A stretch of DNA of 11,463 bases from a virus (IMGVR_UViG_3300046506_000279), one strand, 5' to 3'; shown: positions 1-11,463, numbered from the stretch's first letter. A program made the numbers and translations. Notes: generated by a model not told the origin, from the sequence alone.

Positions 1-2569
1 GGGCGGGGGCGGGCGCGGCGGCTGTGGGCGCGGCGGCCTTGCGCTCGGGTACCGCGTCGACCAGTTCGTTGGGGGCGGCAAACACCGGTTCGTTGAAGGC
101 CTGCGCGGCGGCGCCGTGGCGCTCGACGTGGGCGATTTCGTCGGCGCTCGGCGCGCTGTTGCGGTAGCCGTCGCGGCGCAGGCGCTCGGCGAACACGGCC
201 AGTTGCTGCTTGGCCGGGACGGTCGGCAGTTCGCCCAGCACCTGGTCGAGCACGTCAAGGCGGTTGTTGCGCGAGGTGGCGGCCTGGTGGGCGTCGAGGC
301 GGCCGTTGACGGCTTCCAGCTCGGAAGCGCGCTGCAGGCGCTGGGTGGCCAGGTAGTCGGCCTGGGCCTGGGTGGCGGCGGCGGCTTGGCGGGCGGCAGC
401 AGCTTGCTGCTCGGCGGCAGCGGCGTGTGCCTTCTCTGCGGCCTCGGCAGCAGCGACGCGCCGGGCGATTTCGGCGGCGTCTTGCTCGTTGTCCCAGTCG
501 TCGATCTCGCCGGCGTGCTGTTGCGTGGCCTGCTCCCGGGCCGCTTCGGCGGCCAAGGCGTTGGCCACTTCATTCGGGTCGTCGGCGGCGCGCAGGCGGC
601 CGTCGTAGTCGATGCCGTTGTCGTAGGCCGGGGCGGCGCCGCCGCCTTCCTGCAGCGGGGTGATCGGGGTGCGCTTGTGCGCGCCCTGCATGTCGCGGTT
701 GCCTTCGAAGTCGAGCGCGTTGGGGTCGGTCGGGGTCAGTGCCATGCCTGGCGCGGCAGCCACCGGCACCGCCGGTACCGGGGTGGCCTGGTACGGGATC
801 GGGTTGTACGGGGCGTTGGCGGCGGCAGCGGCAGCGGTGGCGGCCGCATGCGCGGCGGTGGCCAGCGGGCCGGCGTTGGGGGCCAGCGGCGGTACCGGCG
901 CGGCGACCGGGGCCGGGGCGCGTTGCGGGGTACGCTGCGGGGCGCTGACAGCGCCGCCGACGGTGCCCATCACGCCACCGCCCAGGGTGCCCAGCGCGGC
1001 GGCGTCTTCGGCCTGGGCGCGCGAGGCGTTGCTGAACGGGTCGTTGCCCTTGCCGTATTCTTCAAGCAGGGTCTGGCCGTATTCGGTGGCGCCTTCGATC
1101 GGCGCGGCGCCCAGTGCGCCCAGCCCACCACGGGCGGCGCGGCCCTGGATGCCGGGCAGGGCGGCGGCCGGCTTCATGAAGCGCGACTTGCCCAGCATGA
1201 CGTCGAGGCCGATCTTGTCGCCGACGAATTCCAGACCACCGGCTGCCAGCGTGGCGCCGAAGGCCTTGGCCAGTTCGGCGCCGCTCAAGACGCGGTCGGG
1301 GTTGCTGCTGGTCAGGTCGCCGTAGATTTCGCCGCCTTCCATGCCCAGGGCGGAAGCGCCGATGGCGGCGGTCTGGCCCAGGTGGGCGGCGACGTTGGTG
1401 GTGGCCTGTTTGGTCAGCTGGGCGCTGGTGGTGCGGGTGGCGATGTTGGTGGCGGCCTGGCGCGCCAGTTGTTCGGCGCTCAGCTGGGCGCCGCCGTTTG
1501 CCGCAGCCAGCCGTGCGCTTTCGTTGGCCACCATGGCTTCGGTCAGGCGCGCGCTTTCCTTGGCCACCATGCCGGCCGCCAGTTTTTCGGCCACCGCAGT
1601 GGCGCCGGCCTTGCCGACGAACGAACCGATGCCGGCGGTGGCCAGCATCTGCACGCCCTGGCCGCCGGCGTAGCCGATGCCGTGCGTGAGCCAGTCGACC
1701 AATGCGCCCAGGTCGCCCTGCTTGGCCTGGTCGTAGGCATAGTTGAACGAATCGCTGGGCTTGGCATCCTGCGCGATCTTGTTGCCCCAGTCCTTGTAGC
1801 CGGCCATGCCGGCTTGCTTGATGCCGGTCGCAATCCCGCCTTCGCCCACCAGGCTCTCGGCCTGGGCGCCGGCGCCGGCCAGCAGGCCGTAGCCGAGCTG
1901 CGGCAGTTGCTGGAAGGCTTCCTTGGCGCCGCGCATCAGGTTGCTGCTGGTGTCCTTCGGCGGGGCCGCCGGGGTGTCGACGTAGGCGTTGAAGGCGTCC
2001 CAGTTCAGGTCGCCCTGCGGTGCGCCGAGGTAGGCCGGCTGCGGCTTGCCGCTTGGCGTGGGGCCGGCGCCTGGTTGTCCCATGCGGCCCAGCACCATGT
2101 CGGCGTAGGCGCGCGGGGTGGTGCCGTTGGCGTCGGCGCGGTCGGCGCGGATGCTGCCGTCGGCCAGGATCGCGCCGCGGCCGCCGATGTAGGCGGCGGC
2201 GGTCTTGCGCAGGTCGCCGCCGAAGTGGGCGTAGTCGGCGTCAAGCTTGCGGTTGGCCGCAGCCACGCGGTCGTCTTCGTTGTCGAAGGTTTCGCCGGGC
2301 AGCGCATAGTCGTGGAAGGTGGGCGCGGTGATCTGCATGGCGCCGCGCGCGTCCTGCTTGCTGACCGCTTCCGGGTTGCCGCGCGACTCCACGTGGCGGA
2401 TCGCCGCCTTCAGCTGGCCCAGCGGGTCGAGCGCGTCGGCGCCGGGCGTGCCGGCGTCGGGCGCGTCGCTGCCGTCGGCGGCGGCGCCGTTCACGTAGGC
2501 GTTGAACGCGTCCCAGTTCAGGGATTGGGCGGGGTTCTGGAGGTAGTCGGGCTGCGGTTTGGTGGCCAT
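1..2569 (-). CDS. Large internal virion/ejection protein with N-terminal lytic transglycosylase (SLT) domain; 3' end outside window (>856 aa)
   Basis: Manually translated from ATG at 2569 (MATKPQPDYLQNPAQSLNWDAFNAYV...) with no stop through position 1 and strong G/C third-codon bias. SLT motifs: AAIRHVE61SRGNPEAVS, G76AMQI, AAAY127IGG (domain ~2084-2422). Followed by an Ala/Gly-rich helical region, a Pro/Ala linker and an Ala/Glu/Gln-rich coiled-coil-like region. Not in the ORF track because it has no stop in the window. Confidence 0.88.
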   Translation of the reverse strand, partial: MATKPQPDYLQNPAQSLNWDAFNAYVNGAAADGSDAPDAGTPGADALDPLGQLKAAIRHVESRGNPEAVSKQDARGAMQITAPTFHDYALPGETFDNEDDRVAAANRKLDADYAHFGGDLRKTAAAYIGGRGAILADGSIRADRADANGTTPRAYADMVLGRMGQPGAGPTPSGKPQPAYLGAPQGDLNWDAFNAYVDTPAAPPKDTSSNLMRGAKEAFQQLPQLGYGLLAGAGAQAESLVGEGGIATGIKQAGMAGYKDWGNKIAQDAKPSDSFNYAYDQAKQGDLGALVDWLTHGIGYAGGQGVQMLATAGIGSFVGKAGATAVAEKLAAGMVAKESARLTEAMVANESARLAAANGGAQLSAEQLARQAATNIATRTTSAQLTKQATTNVAAHLGQTAAIGASALGMEGGEIYGDLTSSNPDRVLSGAELAKAFGATLAAGGLEFVGDKIGLDVMLGKSRFMKPAAALPGIQGRAARGGLGALGAAPIEGATEYGQTLLEEYGKGNDPFSNASRAQAEDAAALGTLGGGVMGTVGGAVSAPQRTPQRAPAPVAAPVPPLAPNAGPLATAAHAAATAAAAAANAPYNPIPYQATPVPAVPVAAAPGMALTPTDPNALDFEGNRDMQGAHKRTPITPLQEGGGAAPAYDNGIDYDGRLRAADDPNEVANALAAEAAREQATQQHAGEIDDWDNEQDAAEIARRVAAAEAAEKAHAAAAEQQAAAARQAAAATQAQADYLATQRLQRASELEAVNGRLDAHQAATSRNNRLDVLDQVLGELPTVPAKQQLAVFAERLRRDGYRNSAPSADEIAHVERHGAAAQAFNEPVFAAPNELVDAVPERKAAAPTAAAPAPA
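1388..1570 (-). repeat. Two short intragenic tandem duplications (36-nt and 51-nt period)
   Basis: MVAKESARL / MVANESARL (1544-1570, 1508-1534; period 36). QLARQAATNIA / QLTKQATTNVA (1439-1471, 1388-1420; period 51). Confidence 0.8.
1980..2560 (-). repeat. Direct repeat pair (1980-2047 and 2493-2560), 513 bp apart, flanking the SLT domain
   Basis: Peptides KPQPDYLQNPAQSLNWDAFNAYV (aa 4-26) and KPQPAYLGAPQGDLNWDAFNAYV (aa 175-197). DNA core acgtaggcgttgaa[c/g]gcgtcccagttcagg is 29/30 identical (1980-2009 vs 2493-2522). Confidence 0.95.
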
Positions 2570-6144: not shown

Positions 6145-6731
6145 GCAATTCTCCCGCCCGGGTGGGCGTACAGGGCGGTCTTGATGCAGACGATCAGGGC
6201 CAGGCGTTCGGTGGTGCTGTTGTTGTGGACCGCGTGCGGCACGCTGTTGTCGAACCACCAGCAGTCGCCATCCTCGGCGGCAATGGCGCCGTCGGGGAAG
6301 CCGAACAGGGCGCCGGGCGGGTTGGCGATCGCGATGTAGAACTTCTCGTAGTAGTCGGCGTGCCAGCCGGTGTCGACATGGGGCGCGATCACGCCGCCCG
6401 GCGGCAGCTTGGTGATCAGGATCCCGCCCAGCCGTTCGCCTTCCACCCGCCGCATCAGGTCGAACACCAGCGCGTGCAGTTCCGGCAGCTGCTGCCAGGC
6501 CGGGTACCACACGGCGTCGTGTTCGTCGTTGAAGGCGGGGCCGAGATTGTGCGGGGCGTTGTAGCGCACCCAGATATCGGTCATGGCCCGGTGCGGCGAG
6601 CCGGCGTAGGCGCGCGCGCCGTGGGCGCCGAACAGGTCGGGCTGGCGGGCCAGCGCGGCGCGCAGCGGCGCTACCGCCAGGCCGGTGCAGACGGGCTGGA
6701 AGTGGGGCACGGCGGCGGCGGGCTGGGGCAT
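6141..6731 (-). CDS. 2-oxoglutarate/Fe(II) oxygenase, aspartyl/asparaginyl beta-hydroxylase family (196 aa)
   Basis: LGGILITKLPPGGVIAPH118VD120 ... WWFDNSVPH166AVHNNSTTER176LALIV: intact HxD...H facial triad plus the 2OG-binding Arg. No transmembrane segments. Confidence 0.85.
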   Translation of the reverse strand: MPQPAAAVPHFQPVCTGLAVAPLRAALARQPDLFGAHGARAYAGSPHRAMTDIWVRYNAPHNLGPAFNDEHDAVWYPAWQQLPELHALVFDLMRRVEGERLGGILITKLPPGGVIAPHVDTGWHADYYEKFYIAIANPPGALFGFPDGAIAAEDGDCWWFDNSVPHAVHNNSTTERLALIVCIKTALYAHPGGRIA

Positions 6732-6760
6732 GGCGGCGCTTTCATTGCTGAGTGCATGAA

Positions 6761-6766
6761 ATTGTA
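6761..6766 (-). promoter_or_regulatory. Possible -10 element (TACAAT) for the hydroxylase/ejection operon
   Basis: TACAAT on the minus strand ~30 nt upstream of ATG 6731, in an AT-richer intergenic region (6741-6860, ~46% GC by hand count). No recognisable -35 at 16-18 bp spacing. Confidence 0.3.
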
Positions 6767-6801
6767 GGGCGTGCTACCACTTCTACACAGCAAAAGATTG
6801 C

Positions 6802-6830
6802 TTGACCCCATGGTTCACGTACGTGAGAAT
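6802..6830 (+). promoter_or_regulatory. Sigma70-like promoter P1 (TTGACC-N17-GAGAAT) driving the + strand cassette
   Basis: -35 TTGACC 6802-6807 (5/6 consensus), 17-bp spacer, -10 GAGAAT 6825-6830 (4/6), 30 nt upstream of ATG 6860. Confidence 0.7.
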
Positions 6831-6841
6831 GGGCAATTCTC
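6815..6841. promoter_or_regulatory. Putative operator: perfect 12-bp palindrome TCACGTACGTGA plus inverted repeat GAGAAT-N5-ATTCTC
   Basis: Palindrome 6815-6826 covers the spacer and the start of the -10. The second IR (6825-6830 / 6836-6841) covers the -10 and the expected transcription start. Confidence 0.6.
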
Positions 6842-6859
6842 TTGTTACGGGGTATTCCA

Positions 6860-7291
6860 ATGGGCCACAGGCTGCACTTCGCCGACGACAACCTGACCAT
6901 CATCACCAAACTGGCCGAGGGCAATCTCGGTGCGGTGTCGGTGCTGCTGCGCAGCTTGCAGGAGGGGGCCGCGATCGACCCCGACAACGCCTTCGGCGGC
7001 GGCGGCGCCGCGTTCGCGCTCGATACCGACGATATCTACGGCGGCCGCATCTGGCAGCTGTACAAGGATGTGTGCGGGCAGGATCTGGTGCGGATGCTGG
7101 GCGTGCTGCGCGCGGTGCAGCTGGGGCTGTTGCCGCGCGCGCGCCTGCAGGCGGCGATCGACGGCCAGCGTAAGGTGGCGCCGGCACAACACCCGCTGAC
7201 GGCGGGCGAGCTCGATGCGCTGCTGGTGCAGGTGCGCGACCGCTTGCCGCGGTTCGGGGTACAACCATCTCATCAGGCGAGGACATCATGA
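6860..7291 (+). CDS. Phage hypothetical protein (143 aa)
   Basis: ATG 6860 preferred over TTG 6842 given the promoter position; GC3 bias; globular composition (IYGGRIWQLYKDVCGQDLVRMLGVLRAVQLG, a pattern I recall from phage hypothetical proteins); stop overlaps next start. Confidence 0.8.
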   Translation: MGHRLHFADDNLTIITKLAEGNLGAVSVLLRSLQEGAAIDPDNAFGGGGAAFALDTDDIYGGRIWQLYKDVCGQDLVRMLGVLRAVQLGLLPRARLQAAIDGQRKVAPAQHPLTAGELDALLVQVRDRLPRFGVQPSHQARTS

Positions 7292-7587
7292 ATCACGCAG
7301 CACAGGGCACGGACGCCGCAGCAGTGCTGGAACAGCAGCGCGAACTCAACCGGGCGGCGCTCAAGGCCTTGAGCCTGGCGCTGGGCAATACGATGGCCGA
7401 GGCGGTGGTCCACTCGCCGCTCAGTCCACGCGGCGTGATGTATTGCGCGGCCATCGCGCTGCGCGCGTTCACCACCGGGGCGCGCGCGGTCGAAGGCTGG
7501 ACTGTGGAACAGGCCGAAGCCTACCTGGCCGAGGCGCTGGCCGATGCCAGGGCCGATCTGGCCAAATCGGACGCGCCCGCCGCATGA
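7288..7587 (+). CDS. Hypothetical alpha-helical protein (99 aa)
   Basis: GAGGA SD, ATGA overlaps at both ends, GC3 bias. Confidence 0.8.
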   Translation: MNHAAQGTDAAAVLEQQRELNRAALKALSLALGNTMAEAVVHSPLSPRGVMYCAAIALRAFTTGARAVEGWTVEQAEAYLAEALADARADLAKSDAPAA

Positions 7588-8105
7588 ACGGGGTCGAAAC
7601 ACTGCCGCTGGGGGCGCTGCTGGCGGCAATCCGCGCCGAATGCCTGGGGTCGTGGCCGGGGGCCACCGGCGAACGGCGCGCCGATGGGGTGCGGGCGCTG
7701 CTGGACAGGGTGCTGCCGGAATACGCCAGCGCGCTGGGGCTGACCCAGCAAGCGGTGCTGCAGGCGATCGAGCAGCGGCGCGATTATTCGGCCGTCAATT
7801 ACTACCAGGAGGGGAATTTCCCGCCGCTGGACGGGGTGCTGCTGTTTGGCACCGTGGCCAAGTTCAAGCACATGTTCCCGTCCGGGCGCTACCGCTGCCC
7901 GGCCTGCGACGGGGTGTCGTCCGATCCGTATGCCTGCAATGCCGGCACGGTGCGCGATGGCGAGGCGTGCGACTGGAAGGCCTACGGCTTGTTCCGCACG
8001 CTGGGCAAGGGCTTGCGGGTGATCATTACCGACAACTTCCTGACTTGTCCGGTGGTGCAGGACATCTTCATGCCGGTCGAGCGGGCTGGCGGGGGTGCGG
8101 CATGA
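7584..8105 (+). CDS. Hypothetical protein with putative Zn-binding Cys cluster (173 aa)
   Basis: True start ATG 7584 (ATGA overlap); C-x2-C-x9-C-x10-C motif (RCPACDGVSSDPYACNAGTVRDGEACDWKAYGLF). Confidence 0.8.
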   Translation: MNGVETLPLGALLAAIRAECLGSWPGATGERRADGVRALLDRVLPEYASALGLTQQAVLQAIEQRRDYSAVNYYQEGNFPPLDGVLLFGTVAKFKHMFPSGRYRCPACDGVSSDPYACNAGTVRDGEACDWKAYGLFRTLGKGLRVIITDNFLTCPVVQDIFMPVERAGGGAA

Positions 8106-8245
8106 GCGGCGCTGCTGCCAAGGCGCTGGCCTCGCTGGCCGCCAGCGCCGGCTGCGCCGCGATCGCGTGGGCCGCGCCGCCAGTGGCGATGCTGGTGGTA
8201 ATCGCGCTGCCGGTGTCCCTGTATGTGATCTGGCGCAACGCATGA
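8102..8245 (+). CDS. Small hydrophobic, probably membrane, protein (47 aa)
   Basis: ATGA overlap at 8102-8105. MSGAAAKALASLAASAGCAAIAWAAPPVAMLVVIALPVSLYVIWRNA is almost entirely apolar with a C-terminal W-R anchor. It is the C-terminal part of ORF-track entry 7544..8245. Confidence 0.7.
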   Translation: MSGAAAKALASLAASAGCAAIAWAAPPVAMLVVIALPVSLYVIWRNA

Positions 8246-8262
8246 TGGGCGCGGGAACATGA
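8242..8262 (+). other. 6-codon mini-ORF (MMGAGT*) overlapping both neighbours by ATGA
   Basis: ATG ATG GGC GCG GGA ACA TGA: start overlaps the stop at 8243-8245, and its stop (8260-8262) overlaps the ATG at 8259. Confidence 0.5.
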
Positions 8263-8780
8263 ACGATTGGCAACGGCAGTTCGCGCTCGGCGCGCAGATC
8301 AAGGAATTTCGGATCGAGCGCGGGCTGACCCAGCAACAATTGGCCACTGCGGTCGGACTCGAGCGCACCAGCATCACCAACATCGAAGGCGGCAACCAAC
8401 GGGTGGCGGTCGACATGCTGTATGCGATCGGGGCCGCGCTCGGGTACCAGGTCACGGTGGGGTTCGAAGCGCTGGCCGGGTGGCAGCCCGGCACGCGCGG
8501 CCAGCGGCAGCCGGATGCGGATGATGTCGAGCGCGTGGCGCCGTGGCCCGACTTCGCCGGCCAGCCGATCCATGTCGGCGCTGTGCTGCGCCATCCGTCG
8601 GGCGAACAGGGCACCGTGGTGTTCCTGGCCGCGGCACTCGATCCCGGCGACCAGTGGCGCATCGATTACGGCGCGGCCGGGGTGTCGCGGCTGTGCCTGC
8701 AAATCGGCGACAAGGGGCGGGCGGTGGTGGTGGCCGGGCCAGTGAATGTGAATCAATCTGAGAAAGCGGAAACCCCATGA
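8259..8780 (+). CDS. XRE/Cro-C1-type HTH protein fused to a C-terminal small beta-rich domain (173 aa)
   Basis: LGAQIKEFRIERGLTQQQLATAVGLERTSITNIEGGNQRVAVDMLYAIGAALG is a canonical HTH_3 pattern. C-terminal PWPDFAGQPIHVGAVLRHPSGEQGTVVF...WRIDYG...RLCLQIGDKGRAVVV looks like an SH3-like barrel. Confidence 0.88.
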   Translation: MNDWQRQFALGAQIKEFRIERGLTQQQLATAVGLERTSITNIEGGNQRVAVDMLYAIGAALGYQVTVGFEALAGWQPGTRGQRQPDADDVERVAPWPDFAGQPIHVGAVLRHPSGEQGTVVFLAAALDPGDQWRIDYGAAGVSRLCLQIGDKGRAVVVAGPVNVNQSEKAETP

Positions 8781-9007
8781 TTAAAGCGCGCGCCGGCAAC
8801 GTCGTCATTCTCGGGCTCGAAGCCCGCAACGTCGAGTTGCTGAAGGAGGGCAAGCCGATGTACATCAAGCTGGCCGAACTGGGCCTGCCGGATATCGGCA
8901 TTGTCATCATGTACGGCGATACCCCGGACCAGATCGTGGCGCGGATCGAGTCCACCACCGGCTTGAAGGTGCCGGAAATTGATCCGGTCAACGAGCTGCC
9001 GGTATGA
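8777..9007 (+). CDS. Hypothetical protein (76 aa)
   Basis: ATGA overlaps at both ends, GC3 bias, alpha/beta globular composition. Confidence 0.8.
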   Translation: MIKARAGNVVILGLEARNVELLKEGKPMYIKLAELGLPDIGIVIMYGDTPDQIVARIESTTGLKVPEIDPVNELPV

Positions 9008-9276
9008 GTACCGCGCTGGCCGCCCTGCGCCCGGCCTTGCTGATGCGGCTGCAGTTCATCGAATCCCTGCTCGCCCACTACGGCCACCTCAACCGCAGCG
9101 TGCTGATGGATTTCTTTGCGCTGTCGGCACCGCAGGCCACGCGCGATTTCCGCGTGTACCTGGAACTGGCGCCGGGCAATGCGGTGTACGATCCGGCGGC
9201 GCGGGTGTATCTGCGCGGGGGCGGGTTTGCGCGCCTGTGGCCGGTCGGCGATCAATCTGAACAAGGAACACCATGA
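9004..9276 (+). CDS. Stand-alone winged-HTH protein resembling the N-terminal DNA-binding domain of CapW/BrxR-type WYL repressors (90 aa)
   Basis: RLQFIESLLAHYGHLNRSVLMDFFALSAPQATRDFRVYLELAPGNAVYDPAARVYLRGGGF matches from memory the pattern RLxFI...GxxNRxxLMxxFxxSxPQAxxD...Y...APxNxxYD...xY of CapW-type wHTH domains. The ORF ends before any WYL domain. Confidence 0.75.
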   Translation: MSTALAALRPALLMRLQFIESLLAHYGHLNRSVLMDFFALSAPQATRDFRVYLELAPGNAVYDPAARVYLRGGGFARLWPVGDQSEQGTP

Positions 9277-9509
9277 GTCACGGACCCATTGAAGAACAGC
9301 ACCACCAGATGATGAACGCGGTCGCCGCAGTCTTGCGCGATGCGTTCAAGGGCTACGGCTTCTGCCTGCTGGTGTACGACCAGGACAGCAGCGACGGGCG
9401 CATGAACTACGTCTGCAATTCACGGCGCGAAGACATGATCGTCGCCATGAAGGAATTCATCGCCCACCACGAAGGGCGGGTACCAGCGGCACCGACGGCG
9501 CGCCAGTAA
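9273..9509 (+). CDS. Phage hypothetical protein (78 aa)
   Basis: AAGGA SD, ATGA overlap; GFCLLVY...GRMNYVCNSRREDMIVAMKEFI pattern that I recall from small phage proteins. Confidence 0.8.
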   Translation: MSHGPIEEQHHQMMNAVAAVLRDAFKGYGFCLLVYDQDSSDGRMNYVCNSRREDMIVAMKEFIAHHEGRVPAAPTARQ

Positions 9510-9526
9510 GCGCTGCGCGTGGCGAC

Positions 9527-9555
9527 TTGACCGCCGGCACGGCTTGGCGGATACT
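9527..9555 (+). promoter_or_regulatory. Sigma70-like promoter P2 (TTGACC-N17-GATACT)
   Basis: -35 TTGACC 9527-9532, 17-bp spacer, -10 GATACT 9550-9555 (the same -10 hexamer as lambda pL); same -35 hexamer as P1. Confidence 0.65.
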
Positions 9556-9560
9556 GGCTG

Positions 9561-9645
9561 GGCTCACTTTCAGGTGCGGCACCCCTAGTCTTAGTAGTAA
9601 CTGCATTGGCCCGGCACAATACCCTTGTGCCGGGCCTTTTTTTTT
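9561..9645 (+). ncRNA. Candidate ~85-nt small RNA
   Basis: Lies between P2 and the intrinsic terminator; no SD-preceded ORF; contains small stems (GGTG-CGG-CACC) and an A/U-rich single-stranded stretch CTAGTCTTAGTAGTAACT. Confidence 0.5.
9608..9645 (+). terminator. Rho-independent terminator
   Basis: Perfect 12-bp stem GGCCCGGCACAA / TTGTGCCGGGCC, 5-nt loop TACCC, followed by T9. There is no U-tract on the minus-strand side. Confidence 0.95.
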
Positions 9646-9647
9646 GG

Positions 9648-9986
9648 CTACAGCTGCAGCGCGCGGATCGCCGCCTGCACGTCGCCCGTCGCCAGGCTCA
9701 GGCGCTCGTTGAGGTCGTCGAGCTGGCACGCCAGCAGCACCTTGGCGGCCACGCCGTTGGCGCCGGCCTTCGCTTGCTCGCCCGGTTCCAGTTGGCCCGT
9801 CACCGGCTCGAGCCGGCGCAGCAGCATGGCCACGGTTTCGACGTGGAAGTCGAGCGCGTTGCGCAGGTGCTCGAGCGCGGCGTCGACCTGCAGCGGGACG
9901 GTGGCGTCGATGCCGGGCGCCATGGCGCTCTGGGCGGCGAGGTAGGCGCGGGTGGTCGGTGGGTGTTGGCGGTCAGGCAGGTGCAT
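9648..9986 (-). CDS. Hypothetical helical-hairpin/coiled-coil protein (112 aa)
   Basis: GGAGA SD 6 nt before ATG; heptad-like Leu pattern in two helices; stop is 2 nt from the terminator T-tract. Confidence 0.8.
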   Translation of the reverse strand: MHLPDRQHPPTTRAYLAAQSAMAPGIDATVPLQVDAALEHLRNALDFHVETVAMLLRRLEPVTGQLEPGEQAKAGANGVAAKVLLACQLDDLNERLSLATGDVQAAIRALQL

Positions 9987-10052: not shown

Positions 10053-10637
10053 TCAGGCGGCCACCGGCAGCAGCAGCAGCGCCCAGAAACCCAGGCTGTA
10101 GCTGCCGCTGCCGTCATTGCCGGCGTGCAGGGTCAGCGCGTAGTCGCCGGCCTCCAATCTGAACGTGTCGCTGGCCAGGTAGGAATCGGCGTAGCCGCCG
10201 CGCATGCTGTTGCTTTGGGATAGCAGCACCACGCCGGTGCCGTTGTGGACTTCGATGCGGGTGTTGCCGCTGGCGGTGCCCACCGCCTGCCAGTGGGCCA
10301 GCGCCTGGAAGCTGGCGGCGCGGTCGAGGGAGAGGTTGATGTTGGTCAGGGCGTCCGACAGCGAGCCGGGGCCGAACGGGCCGCCGCCAAAGCCGTGCGC
10401 GTAGCGGGCCAGCAGGCGCGGGGCGGTGCCGGGGGCGCTGGCGTTGTCGGCGCGTACCGCAGCCAGCGCCTGGCGGGTGGTGATGAAGGCTTCGCTGCCG
10501 GAACCGGCCAGGTTGTTGCGCACGTTGTGGGTCGAGACCAGCGCGCGCAGCACGTCGCGCACGCCGGGGTCGGCGATGGCGTCGAGGGCAGCCAGCGGGA
10601 TGCCGGGGATGATCTTGCCGGTTTGGTCTAGGGCCAT
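10053..10637 (-). CDS. Probable tail-associated protein (194 aa)
   Basis: ATG 10637 overlaps the methyltransferase TGA (TGATG). N-terminus IPGIPLAALDAIADPGVRDVLRALVSTHNVRNNLAGSGSEAFIT resembles from memory the N-terminal segment of tail fibre/tip proteins of related phages; C-terminal half is beta-sandwich-like. The product call is tentative. Confidence 0.65.
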   Translation of the reverse strand: MALDQTGKIIPGIPLAALDAIADPGVRDVLRALVSTHNVRNNLAGSGSEAFITTRQALAAVRADNASAPGTAPRLLARYAHGFGGGPFGPGSLSDALTNINLSLDRAASFQALAHWQAVGTASGNTRIEVHNGTGVVLLSQSNSMRGGYADSYLASDTFRLEAGDYALTLHAGNDGSGSYSLGFWALLLLPVAA

Positions 10638-11463
10638 CAACTTGCCTCGGTCAGGTGCGGCGGCGCCGCGAACAGGTCGAGCTGGGGCGCGGCCACCTTG
10701 GCCGCTTCGGCGCGCGCCGTGGCCTTGGCCTGCTCGCTGGCGATGCGGGCCTCGGCAATCGCCAGGTAGTCGGGCGACAGTTCGGCGCCGATGAAGCGAA
10801 AGCCTTCGCGCATGGCGGCCTTGCCGGTGCTGCCCGAACCCATGAAGGGGTCCAGCACCACGCCGCCCGGGGGCGTCACCAGCCGCACCAGGTAGGCCAT
10901 CAGGTCGGTAGGCTTGACGGTGGGGTGGGTGTTGGCGCGTTCGGTGTTGGTCCGTTCGCCTTCGGTTCGCCCTTCGCGCGCGTCAACCGACGTTTTCAGG
11001 CCGTACTGTTGCGATACGCCTACGACCGGCATATTCTCGCAGCCCTCGTTACGGTCGCTTTTGCTGGCCTTGGCGCAGTAGAAGAAGCGGGCGGCGCTGC
11101 CGCTGTCGTCATAGAACTGGCCCGGCACGCGGCCCGCGAACTTGCCATAGATCGCGTCAGTCACGCTGCTTGGCTCGGTGCCGCGTACCGGGGCGCTGGC
11201 GCCCGCATTGGCCGGGAACAGGGCCACCACTTCGGCGCTGCCGTCGTGGATCAGGTTCGCGGGCCAGCGGCCGGCCAGGTCAGGCGTTACAACGCGGCGC
11301 TCTGGCTCATGGGCGATGATGTTGCCGCCATTGCCCCCGTTGATGTGCGAGCGCAGGTGCGGGTTCAGCGCTAAATTTCCATCGCCCACGGTGACGTGCG
11401 CCACCCGACAGCCGTCAATATTGAGCGCCCCGGTGCCGTGGGCCAGCACGTTGGCGGCCACGG
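10637..11463 (-). CDS. Site-specific DNA methyltransferase (N6-adenine/N4-cytosine, beta class), 5' part outside window
   Basis: VAANVLAHGTGALNIDGCRV, GRWPANLIHDGS, AARFFYCAKASKSDR, HPTVKPTDLMAYLVRLVTPPGGVVLDPFMGSGSTGKAA..EGFRFIGAE: motif X and motif I (FxGxG) at the C-terminus, the beta-class order. The GTG at 11461 is internal; catalytic motif IV must be upstream of the window. Confidence 0.93.
   Translation of the reverse strand, partial: VAANVLAHGTGALNIDGCRVAHVTVGDGNLALNPHLRSHINGGNGGNIIAHEPERRVVTPDLAGRWPANLIHDGSAEVVALFPANAGASAPVRGTEPSSVTDAIYGKFAGRVPGQFYDDSGSAARFFYCAKASKSDRNEGCENMPVVGVSQQYGLKTSVDAREGRTEGERTNTERANTHPTVKPTDLMAYLVRLVTPPGGVVLDPFMGSGSTGKAAMREGFRFIGAELSPDYLAIAEARIASEQAKATARAEAAKVAAPQLDLFAAPPHLTEAS

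Follow-up and report, generated by a model that had tools for sequence, protein, structure and literature searches.

What is an operon of eight small genes doing on the opposite strand, inside the structural gene array of a phage? The question is raised by positions 6802–9645 of a stretch of DNA of 11,463 nucleotides (nt), referred to throughout as the window, which corresponds to bases 73111–84573 of the IMG/VR viral contig IMGVR_UViG_3300046506_000279 (94,661 bp, ~70% GC). A sequence-only reading had described this region as a self-contained, inverted accessory cassette, and had proposed a counter-defence or lysogenic-conversion role for it. The self-contained, variable unit of opposite orientation withstood our analysis, while the proposed role found no support in it. 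We think it probable, if some way from certain, that the cassette is an autonomous and self-limiting accessory operon with variable cargo, read by host polymerase and held in a fixed slot of a family of ~60–95 kb phages. This family is marked by a giant polyvalent virion open reading frame (ORF), and its slot is flanked by a tail-fibre-related gene and by a hydroxylase-cupin-virion-protein operon. The cassette is real accessory cargo, for which an anti-defence role is unproven.

DNA of ~70% GC gives long ORFs in all frames, hence the reality of the genes was judged from the GC content of each codon position. Third-position GC (GC3) showed coding on the + strand between ~6830 and ~9510 and on the minus strand to either side, with the frame shifting exactly at the reported junctions, so the unit does run against late-type genes within the virion module. 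Eight + strand ORFs span 6860–9509 and have exactly the sizes first given for them: c1 (6860–7291, 143 aa from an ATG, or 149 aa if a TTG at 6842 is used), c2 (7288–7587, 99 aa), c3 (7584–8105, 173 aa), c4 (8102–8245, 47 aa), c5 (8259–8780, 173 aa), c6 (8777–9007, 76 aa), c7 (9004–9276, 90 aa) and c8 (9273–9509, 78 aa). The ORFs had been described as chained by ATGA overlaps, which is true of six of the seven junctions and untrue of c4–c5, where 13 nt separate the genes. Homologues exist for seven of the genes, which together with the GC3 periodicity rules out chance ORFs. GC content is lower in the cassette than on either side (0.62–0.69 vs 0.70–0.77), and it falls to 49% in the intergenic leader, compared with ~70% around it.

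Is this core or accessory content? Related phages (~60–92 kb) were retrieved with homologues of the two genes bordering the cassette, the tail-fibre-related gene H and the hydroxylase gene F, and more were retrieved with homologues of c7. In these relatives H and the F-E-D-B genes are syntenic and on a single strand, and the interval between H and F, where the cassette lies in the window, is on the opposite strand. Five related contigs carry 1.2–6.1 kb of differing cargo in this interval, and the slot was never empty. The closest relative (L051), whose contig begins inside c2, has c2, c3, an HTH-only c5, a new 75-aa gene, c6 and c7, and is without c1, c4, c8 and the flanking gene G. The slot of L034 is 6.1 kb long with at least 15 ORFs, including genes like c2, c6 and the helix-turn-helix (HTH) part of c5, without c7, while that of L035/L045 (2.06 kb) has c2-like, c4-like and c7-like genes followed by ORFs of 80, 91 and 178 aa, without an XRE-type HTH. 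Two unrelated genes, neither of them c5 or c7, fill the 1.7 kb of L030, and the ~1.2 kb of L031 has no homologue of any cassette gene.

The shared cargo pool comprises c2, c3, c4, the HTH of c5, c6 and c7. Most widely shared is c2 (73% identity in L051, 41% in L034, 38% in L047, 35% in L035/L045), and c6 is 86%, 69% and 63% identical in L051, L047 and L034, respectively. L047 combines c6, c2, c4, two c7 paralogues and a c5-type HTH, and in L046, an unrelated phage of 43 kb, a comparable inverted cassette adjoins the portal gene, its c7 being 74% and its HTH 50% identical. A c7-type gene and a small XRE-HTH gene lie no more than three genes apart in the window, L046, L047, L051 and L066. Each relative's slot holds a DNA-binding-looking protein, be it an XRE-HTH, a c7-type winged helix or a 178–224 aa protein of PHROG 4405. 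The locus is thus neither the invariant core content against which the sequence-only reading had to be checked, nor random content. At the DNA level no relatives were found among 50,697 phage records, except for short stretches of the methyltransferase gene and c3.

Does the unit have transcription signals of its own? A consensus scan found two promoter-like sites, compared with 0.5 ± 0.6 in shuffles, both of them on the + strand and both in agreement with what had been read from the sequence. P1 (TTGACC-17-GAGAAT, 6802–6830, 9/12 match) precedes the cassette and P2 (TTGACC-17-GATACT, 9527–9555) follows c8. Downstream lies a strong intrinsic terminator at 9608–9645 (+), formed by a stem-loop at 9608–9636 with a 12-bp perfect stem and a 5-nt loop, then T9. 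Inverted repeats do overlap P1. Direct reading gives a perfect 10-bp palindrome, CACGTACGTG, in the spacer (6816–6825), and a candidate operator, a 10-5-10 inverted repeat (8/10 complementary), covers the -10 and the expected +1 (6821–6845). Each is unique in the 94.7-kb genome, and by our own estimate the chance expectation is ~0.02–0.04 each, so they are statistically modest. Further sigma70-like promoters lie upstream of other + strand units in the genome, one of which is a second backwards island in the structural array, making use of host polymerase plausible for the phage as a whole.

The other side of the leader, facing the F-E-D... virion operon, carries a minus-strand element at 6757–6783 with a -10-like TACAAT (6766–6761, minus) inside GTAG-N6-CTAC, whose motif GAAATTnTAGGG...GCTACC is kept at the equivalent site in L030, L034 and L035/L045. 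It is the putative F-operon promoter, with a good -10 (TACAAT/TAGAAT) and a poor -35, a combination typical of factor-dependent (late) promoters. The leader as a whole is conserved in the relatives, with the -10-like TACAAT/TAGAAT directed towards the F operon and, where P1 would lie, a sigma70-like TTGAAA-N18-TATCCT directed towards the cassette.

Taken together, we propose that host sigma70 RNA polymerase would start at P1, near 6837, and would make one translationally coupled mRNA of c1–c8 ending at the 9608–9645 terminator. The c7 protein, the c5 protein or both would then bind the palindrome or the 10-5-10 repeat over the -10/+1 and close the operon after an initial burst, as Aca proteins and the C-proteins of restriction-modification systems shut their own operons. 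P2 would separately make a double-hairpin-like small RNA (sRNA) of ~65–85 nt that shares the cassette terminator. The 4-Cys protein c3, the membrane peptide c4 and c1, c2, c6 and c8 would be the cargo, acting on the host cell.

Two DNA-binding proteins had been predicted, and both calls were correct. The HTH of c5 matches Pfam HTH_31 (E 1.1e-10), and c7 is a stand-alone BrxR/CapW-type winged helix (wHTH). Local Pfam models did not match c7, and eight short homologues of it carry the precomputed domain PF26109 (WHD_BrxR). A profile of c7 homologues matches only the N-terminal wHTH of CapW/BrxR structures (E 6.6e-19 to 5.8e-8), best CapW 7TB5 (E 6.6e-19, residues 14–80) and also 7TB6, 9C5G and the BrxR structures 7QFZ and 7T8K. 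Identity to the wHTH of Pseudomonas aeruginosa CapW, counted by hand from the profile alignment, is ~45%. Mutation has shown that DNA binding by CapW needs Arg32, Ser42, Gln45 and Ser47 (bioRxiv 10.1101/2022.01.04.474952), which correspond to R31, S41, Q44 and T46 of c7; all eight homologues keep the first three, and at the fourth position five have Ser and three have Thr. c7 stops at residue 90, ~10 residues past the wing, without a WYL or WCX domain, and no WYL match was found in c8, the next ORF across an ATGA overlap. Prediction of a c7 homodimer gave a median of 0.36 against a mark of 0.42 and was counted neither way.

How such a head came to stand alone can be asked of its relatives. A word-indexed search found no longer relatives of c7 and was replaced by an exhaustive hidden Markov model search with the c7 domain, which returned 1,543 cluster representatives, the best 43 of them all shorter than 170 aa. 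Lengths and phylogeny were analysed for 158 sequences, the best 150 of the 1,543 representatives plus the eight homologues of the query set. Almost half (72/158) are shorter than 130 aa and stop precisely where the domain does (median C-tail 0), and 39 are full-length, ~290–350 aa. Short and long forms are clustered yet mixed on the maximum-likelihood domain tree, with 13 changes compared with 32 ± 2 in shuffles, and the starred branches require at least seven. Because the two forms interchange at least seven times, BrxR/CapW heads appear to have been repeatedly split from or joined to sensors. c7 itself falls in a small, all-short clade.

The R-boxes of BrxR have arms of 10–11 bp and a 5-bp spacer (PMC9122601), and CapW sites overlap the -10 (bioRxiv 10.1101/2022.01.04.474952). 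The 6821–6845 repeat has the geometry of the former and the position of the latter, hence by analogy it is tentatively assigned to c7, and CACGTACGTG tentatively to the XRE protein c5. Upstream of other WHD_BrxR genes, a comparable 10-5-10 repeat was seen only in L066.

The most widely shared piece of the locus is not a protein gene but the sRNA unit at its end. The candidate sRNA (9562–9645, +, ~84 nt) has a C/U-rich 5' part with an invariant CCCUAGU core, then the terminator hairpin. It was found in seven further contigs, at least eight in all, of differing GC. The P2 hexamers are kept in sequence and spacing in L051, L030/L055, L035/L045/L056 and L062, and L057 and L060 keep the -10 with a weaker -35 (TAGCCA, TAGACT). 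The ~30-nt core of the sRNA is nearly invariant, reading GUCUCUUUCAGGACAUCCCUAGUUUUGGACUU in the relatives, and the terminator stems vary with compensatory changes. As L057, L059, L060 and L062 carry the unit with no cassette or flanking protein in common with the window phage (L062 has a single unrelated 81–82 aa protein match), the sRNA unit itself appears to be mobile. Judging from sequence, a separately promoted sRNA gene is likely to be real. The 6757–6783 element and the sRNA have a CCCTA(G/C) core in common.

Its nearest known likeness is RF02278, the Burkholderia "double-hairpin" sRNAs, for which pairing between C/U-rich stretches and ribosome-binding sites is predicted; one of them, ncS27, slows growth when overexpressed (PMC5688073, PMC4603805). 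These "toxic" sRNAs of Betaproteobacteria (ncS03, ncS05, ncS27 and ncS62 in Burkholderia; PMC5688073) resemble the candidate in length (~60–85 nt), in having their own promoter, in the 5' end (UGUCUCUUUCA vs the consensus UGUCUCCUCCA), in a predicted C/U-rich first hairpin or loop and in the use of the terminator as second hairpin. The candidate differs in being phage-borne and in its sub-threshold scores. Rfam gave nothing at E ≤ 1 over window positions 6600–9800, and a narrow scan gave only terminator-driven noise. The window copy, in which the 5' part has diverged and 14 nt are inserted, scores 15.7 bits against RF02278, and full-length matches in relatives score 35.6, 32.6, 32.3 and 25 bits, all below the threshold of 50, hence by the Rfam criterion the sRNA is not a member. 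Among six relatives whose minimum-energy fold was computed, three show a first hairpin with CAUCCCU in its loop; this hairpin is weak, and covariation supports the terminator hairpin only. At best by analogy, the sRNA might work as the RF02278 sRNAs do.

What, then, does the operon carry? c5 has an XRE-type HTH (residues 1–60), a disordered linker (65–85) and a small beta domain (93–160), a layout reproduced by its AF2 model of two domains joined by a disordered linker. Residues 91–159 match PHROG 19209 (E 4e-18), and the beta domain is a free-standing protein of 67–104 aa in 27 other viral contigs of 37–67% GC. In L051 the c5 HTH stands alone (81 aa) and is followed by the unrelated 75-aa gene, and c5 looks like a recent gene fusion on the strength of its modelled structure. 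The folds nearest to the HTH are those of HipB and of the C-proteins of restriction-modification systems (Foldseek E 5e-4 to 1e-2, in a search dominated by HTH). PADLOC, run on nine small proteins, matched c5 only, with generic XRE-HTH models (CapH, C-proteins, RmrA) which are not evidence of a link to defence. The PHROG 19209 part of c5 (residues 92–173, window 8532–8777; loci L002–L028) belongs to a ~70-aa beta-rich family with an invariant SRLCLQIGDKG motif, which in many ~37-kb low-GC contigs lies <1 kb from the contig end.

c3, a helical bundle with a zinc-ribbon-like 4-Cys domain, is one member of a family that comprises at least 65 clusters (38–82% identity) on contigs of 40–115 kb, including enterobacterial plasmid-like elements with StbA partition genes. 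C105, C108, C118, C129, W131 and several glycines are invariant. The AF2 model is confident (pLDDT 94.5, pTM 0.84), and Foldseek found nothing at E ≤ 0.001 in PDB or BFVD. The best VIA-align match (Z 5.8) was a generic helical bundle, the matches among AFDB clusters were all unnamed relatives apart from one "phage protein", and ESM Atlas was uninformative. As modelled, c3 is a widespread phage and plasmid family without a known fold.

The remaining proteins are small. c4 is a hydrophobic peptide, a probable single-pass membrane protein by its sequence, with weak homologues in L045 and L047. c8 falls in PHROG 35296 (E 2.8e-13) and has distant homologues in Paracoccus and Mycobacterium phages. 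Nothing named matched c1, c2 (a helical protein) or c6, and no homologue of c1 lies in the slot of any relative. A language model likened c1 to winged-helix domains of STAND/NLR-type NTPases (WHD_TANC1, WHD_NWD1 and WHD_MalT; scores 0.90–0.92), a weak lead, the Atlas model being poor (pLDDT 0.44). A sub-threshold Pfam match (E 0.013) raised the idea that c6 is a uracil-DNA glycosylase inhibitor like phi29 p56, and this was dropped when a four-sequence profile against solved structures and tblastn against phages both came back empty.

The structural genes around the cassette form a single long minus-strand array that wraps the genome map, according to annotation of the largest proteins. It includes the small terminase, portal and major head protein and a 699-aa tail protein. 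To the right of the cassette lie a DNA methyltransferase (I) and H, and to the left F, a cupin (E, in a cupin/tail-fibre-adhesin PHROG) and a virion structural protein (D), followed further left by a 715-aa protein (B) and the giant ORF. The latter (7,371 aa, window 2–2569, genome 53564–75679, minus) exits the left end of the window and has an SLT lytic transglycosylase domain near its N-terminus, and its 6,822-aa counterpart in L045 has glucosaminidase, helicase and ART-PolyVal matches. The genome ends share a 127-bp terminal repeat, which is probably the overlap of a circular assembly.

Variability in this part of the array extends beyond the cassette. Gene G (window 9648–9986, minus, 112 aa, GC3 0.94, resembling late genes) has no homologue in any relative, and since H in relatives directly abuts the sRNA terminator, G is an extra late-strand insertion. 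The methyltransferase (window 10637–11461 onward, genome 83747–85333), whose gene lies between H and that of the 699-aa tail protein, varies too: it is present in L035/L045 with an HTH insert and absent from L030 and L034, and in L051 its place beside H is taken by another protein, of 208 aa and with a faint MazG match, on a contig that stops before the tail gene. The C-terminal half of H (residues ~100–193; window 10053–10640) shares 33–36% identity with the C-terminal end of the 690-aa tail protein encoded upstream in L029, L030 and L035, and L031 has a 516-aa fibre-like protein with the same ends in the position of H, which suggests a swappable receptor-binding tip. Elsewhere, the minus-strand structural array is interrupted a second time, at genome 87462–90777 (L041 3463–6778), by a + strand island of some four small genes with an upstream sigma70-like promoter that has an extended -10 (TTGCCA-18-GATAGT). 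At genome 28722–29427 (L042/L044) a divergent HTH pair (65 aa minus, 147 aa plus), which looks CI/Cro-type, has a sigma70-like promoter close by.

Several observations weigh against an accessory operon acting on the host. Cassette GC3 (0.78–0.87) is the same as that of the phage's own non-structural genes (0.84 ± 0.05), hence the cassette genes may be displaced early genes and not foreign morons. As the slot is always filled and several cargo genes recur, the unit could also be a semi-conserved early or regulatory region instead of free cargo. c7 lacks the WYL and WCX dimerisation parts of its full-length relatives, and the operator-like repeat has no counterpart in the promoters of the c7-bearing relatives L045, L046 and L068. 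Stand-alone BrxR-type heads often occupy ordinary phage regulator positions, which tells against an anti-defence role in particular. No recognised function was found in the cargo genes with Pfam, PHROGs, NCBIfam and PADLOC, which gave nothing beyond generic HTH, and the proposal of an anti-defence module finds no support there. The cargo of the relatives is likewise of unknown function, ten further proteins matching only DUF7694 and PHROGs of that kind.

The alternative that survives best, though we regard it as rather unlikely, is that the region is a developmental control region. Under it, c5 and c7 would be the early/late switch of the phage, the adjacent divergent promoter of the F-E-D-...-giant-ORF operon would be their main target, and the small genes would be normal early genes. 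The cassette starts ~70 bp from the conserved F-operon element, and both its codon composition and the presence of a DNA-binding-looking protein in the slot of every relative fit such a switch. However, the regulators differ between relatives (L030 has neither c5 nor c7, L034 lacks c7 and L045 lacks the XRE-HTH), which would be odd for an essential switch, and it is the cassette promoter, rather than the conserved element of the F operon, that bears the inverted repeats.

A second alternative, which we consider unlikely, concerns c7 as a repressor mimic. A head without the single-stranded-DNA-sensing WYL domain would occupy the operators of host CBASS, BREX and other WYL-controlled defence operons, so that they stay repressed when infection releases the host repressor, with the sRNA and cargo adding to the silencing. 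Phages would gain from blocking the derepression of WYL-controlled defence, which increases protection against them (bioRxiv 10.1101/2025.11.13.688357). The ~45% identity to CapW, the retained DNA-contact residues, including the CapW-specific Arg, the many short forms (72 of 158 sequences) that stop precisely at the domain boundary and their repeated interchange with long ones all point in this direction. On the other hand, the cassette's own promoter already has a cognate-looking site, no known anti-defence genes were found nearby, either in the window or at the slot in relatives, and stand-alone heads in the early regions of phages often sit where an ordinary regulator would. The contexts seen for other such heads were divergent from an MqsA-type HTH, beside an H-NS-like gene, or as the first gene at a divergent promoter. 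In L067 (4702–5249) a stand-alone WHD_BrxR gene directly follows an H-NS-like (Histone_HNS) gene with a 4-bp overlap, which places two potential silencers side by side.

A composite of these ideas is a little less likely again, namely a two-layer host-silencing kit on a self-limiting early operon. Here the c7 head would block WYL-controlled defence operons, a phage copy of a host double-hairpin sRNA directed against ribosome-binding sites would damp translation, and the other small proteins, including the 4-Cys protein, would be further inhibitors. Least likely, and in our view improbable, is a moron for lysogenic conversion or superinfection immunity that a prophage or episome would express, for although the autonomous promoter-terminator unit, the c4 membrane peptide, the XRE-type repressor-like protein and a divergent HTH pair that could be a CI/Cro-like switch would suit one, no tyrosine integrase was found in the genome, leaving the suggested expression in a lysogen without a basis, a single scan of a genome collection with the c7 profile gave three uninformative metagenome-assembled matches and no close prophage copy, and the terminal repeat looks like assembly overlap of a circular contig.

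The accessory operon that we favour shares features with several known systems. It is like an acr-aca locus in being a short operon of small, fast-swapping genes in a conserved phage backbone, with a strong host-type promoter bearing inverted repeats and a co-transcribed HTH able in principle to repress it. Two of its proteins, the c5 XRE-HTH and the c7 wHTH, could fill that part in a translationally coupled operon, and the promoter repeats are present in P1 but not conserved in the promoters of relatives. It differs in having two DNA-binding classes, eight genes (far longer than such operons) and its own sRNA gene; there was no known-Acr match in Pfam, PHROG, NCBIfam and PADLOC, in the absence of a dedicated Acr library search, and no Aca-family assignment. 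Morons in the lambda/HK97 sense are likewise promoter-to-terminator units of opposite orientation between late genes, with GC below the flanks and content that differs among relatives. Here the promoter and terminator are consensus matches and content differs between syntenic relatives, but the slot is never empty, the cargo partly recurs and the codon composition is that of the phage's non-structural genes.

At the level of single proteins, c7 is homologous to the winged-helix domain of CapW/BrxR (7TB5, 7TB6, 9C5G, 7QFZ, 7T8K), which are wHTH-WYL-WCX repressors of CBASS, BREX and other defence islands, and the 10-5-10 repeat over the -10 resembles their operators. Unlike them c7 is phage-encoded and has neither the WYL sensor nor WCX, and no defence gene lies in the window. 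c5 resembles C-proteins and HipB in its HTH fold (Foldseek) and in its matches to PADLOC "control protein" models, but has an extra C-terminal beta domain that is free-standing in other phages. The operon contains neither a restriction endonuclease nor a toxin partner, and the methyltransferase close by belongs to a different operon on the opposite strand.

Morons and acr-aca loci are known precedents for variable cassettes that run backwards from a promoter of their own and encode an HTH regulator. New here is the fixed frame of a conserved divergent promoter and a conserved sRNA-terminator, together with the pairing of an XRE-HTH with a sensor-less BrxR/CapW head, an sRNA gene of its own and a cargo family without a known fold. 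It is in variable slots with a promoter of their own that phages keep genes for counter-defence and host takeover. If no part of the unit acts on the host, it is an ordinary displaced early-gene block. If c7 does silence defence operons, this would be an anti-defence mechanism at the level of transcription, which we did not find described in the literature searched. A phage sRNA with its own conserved promoter and a conserved 4-Cys family on phages and plasmid-like elements are further leads. With a divergent promoter on one side and an sRNA and terminator on the other, the slot is recognisable and could serve as a genomic address for harvesting unknown cargo throughout a family of large environmental phages.

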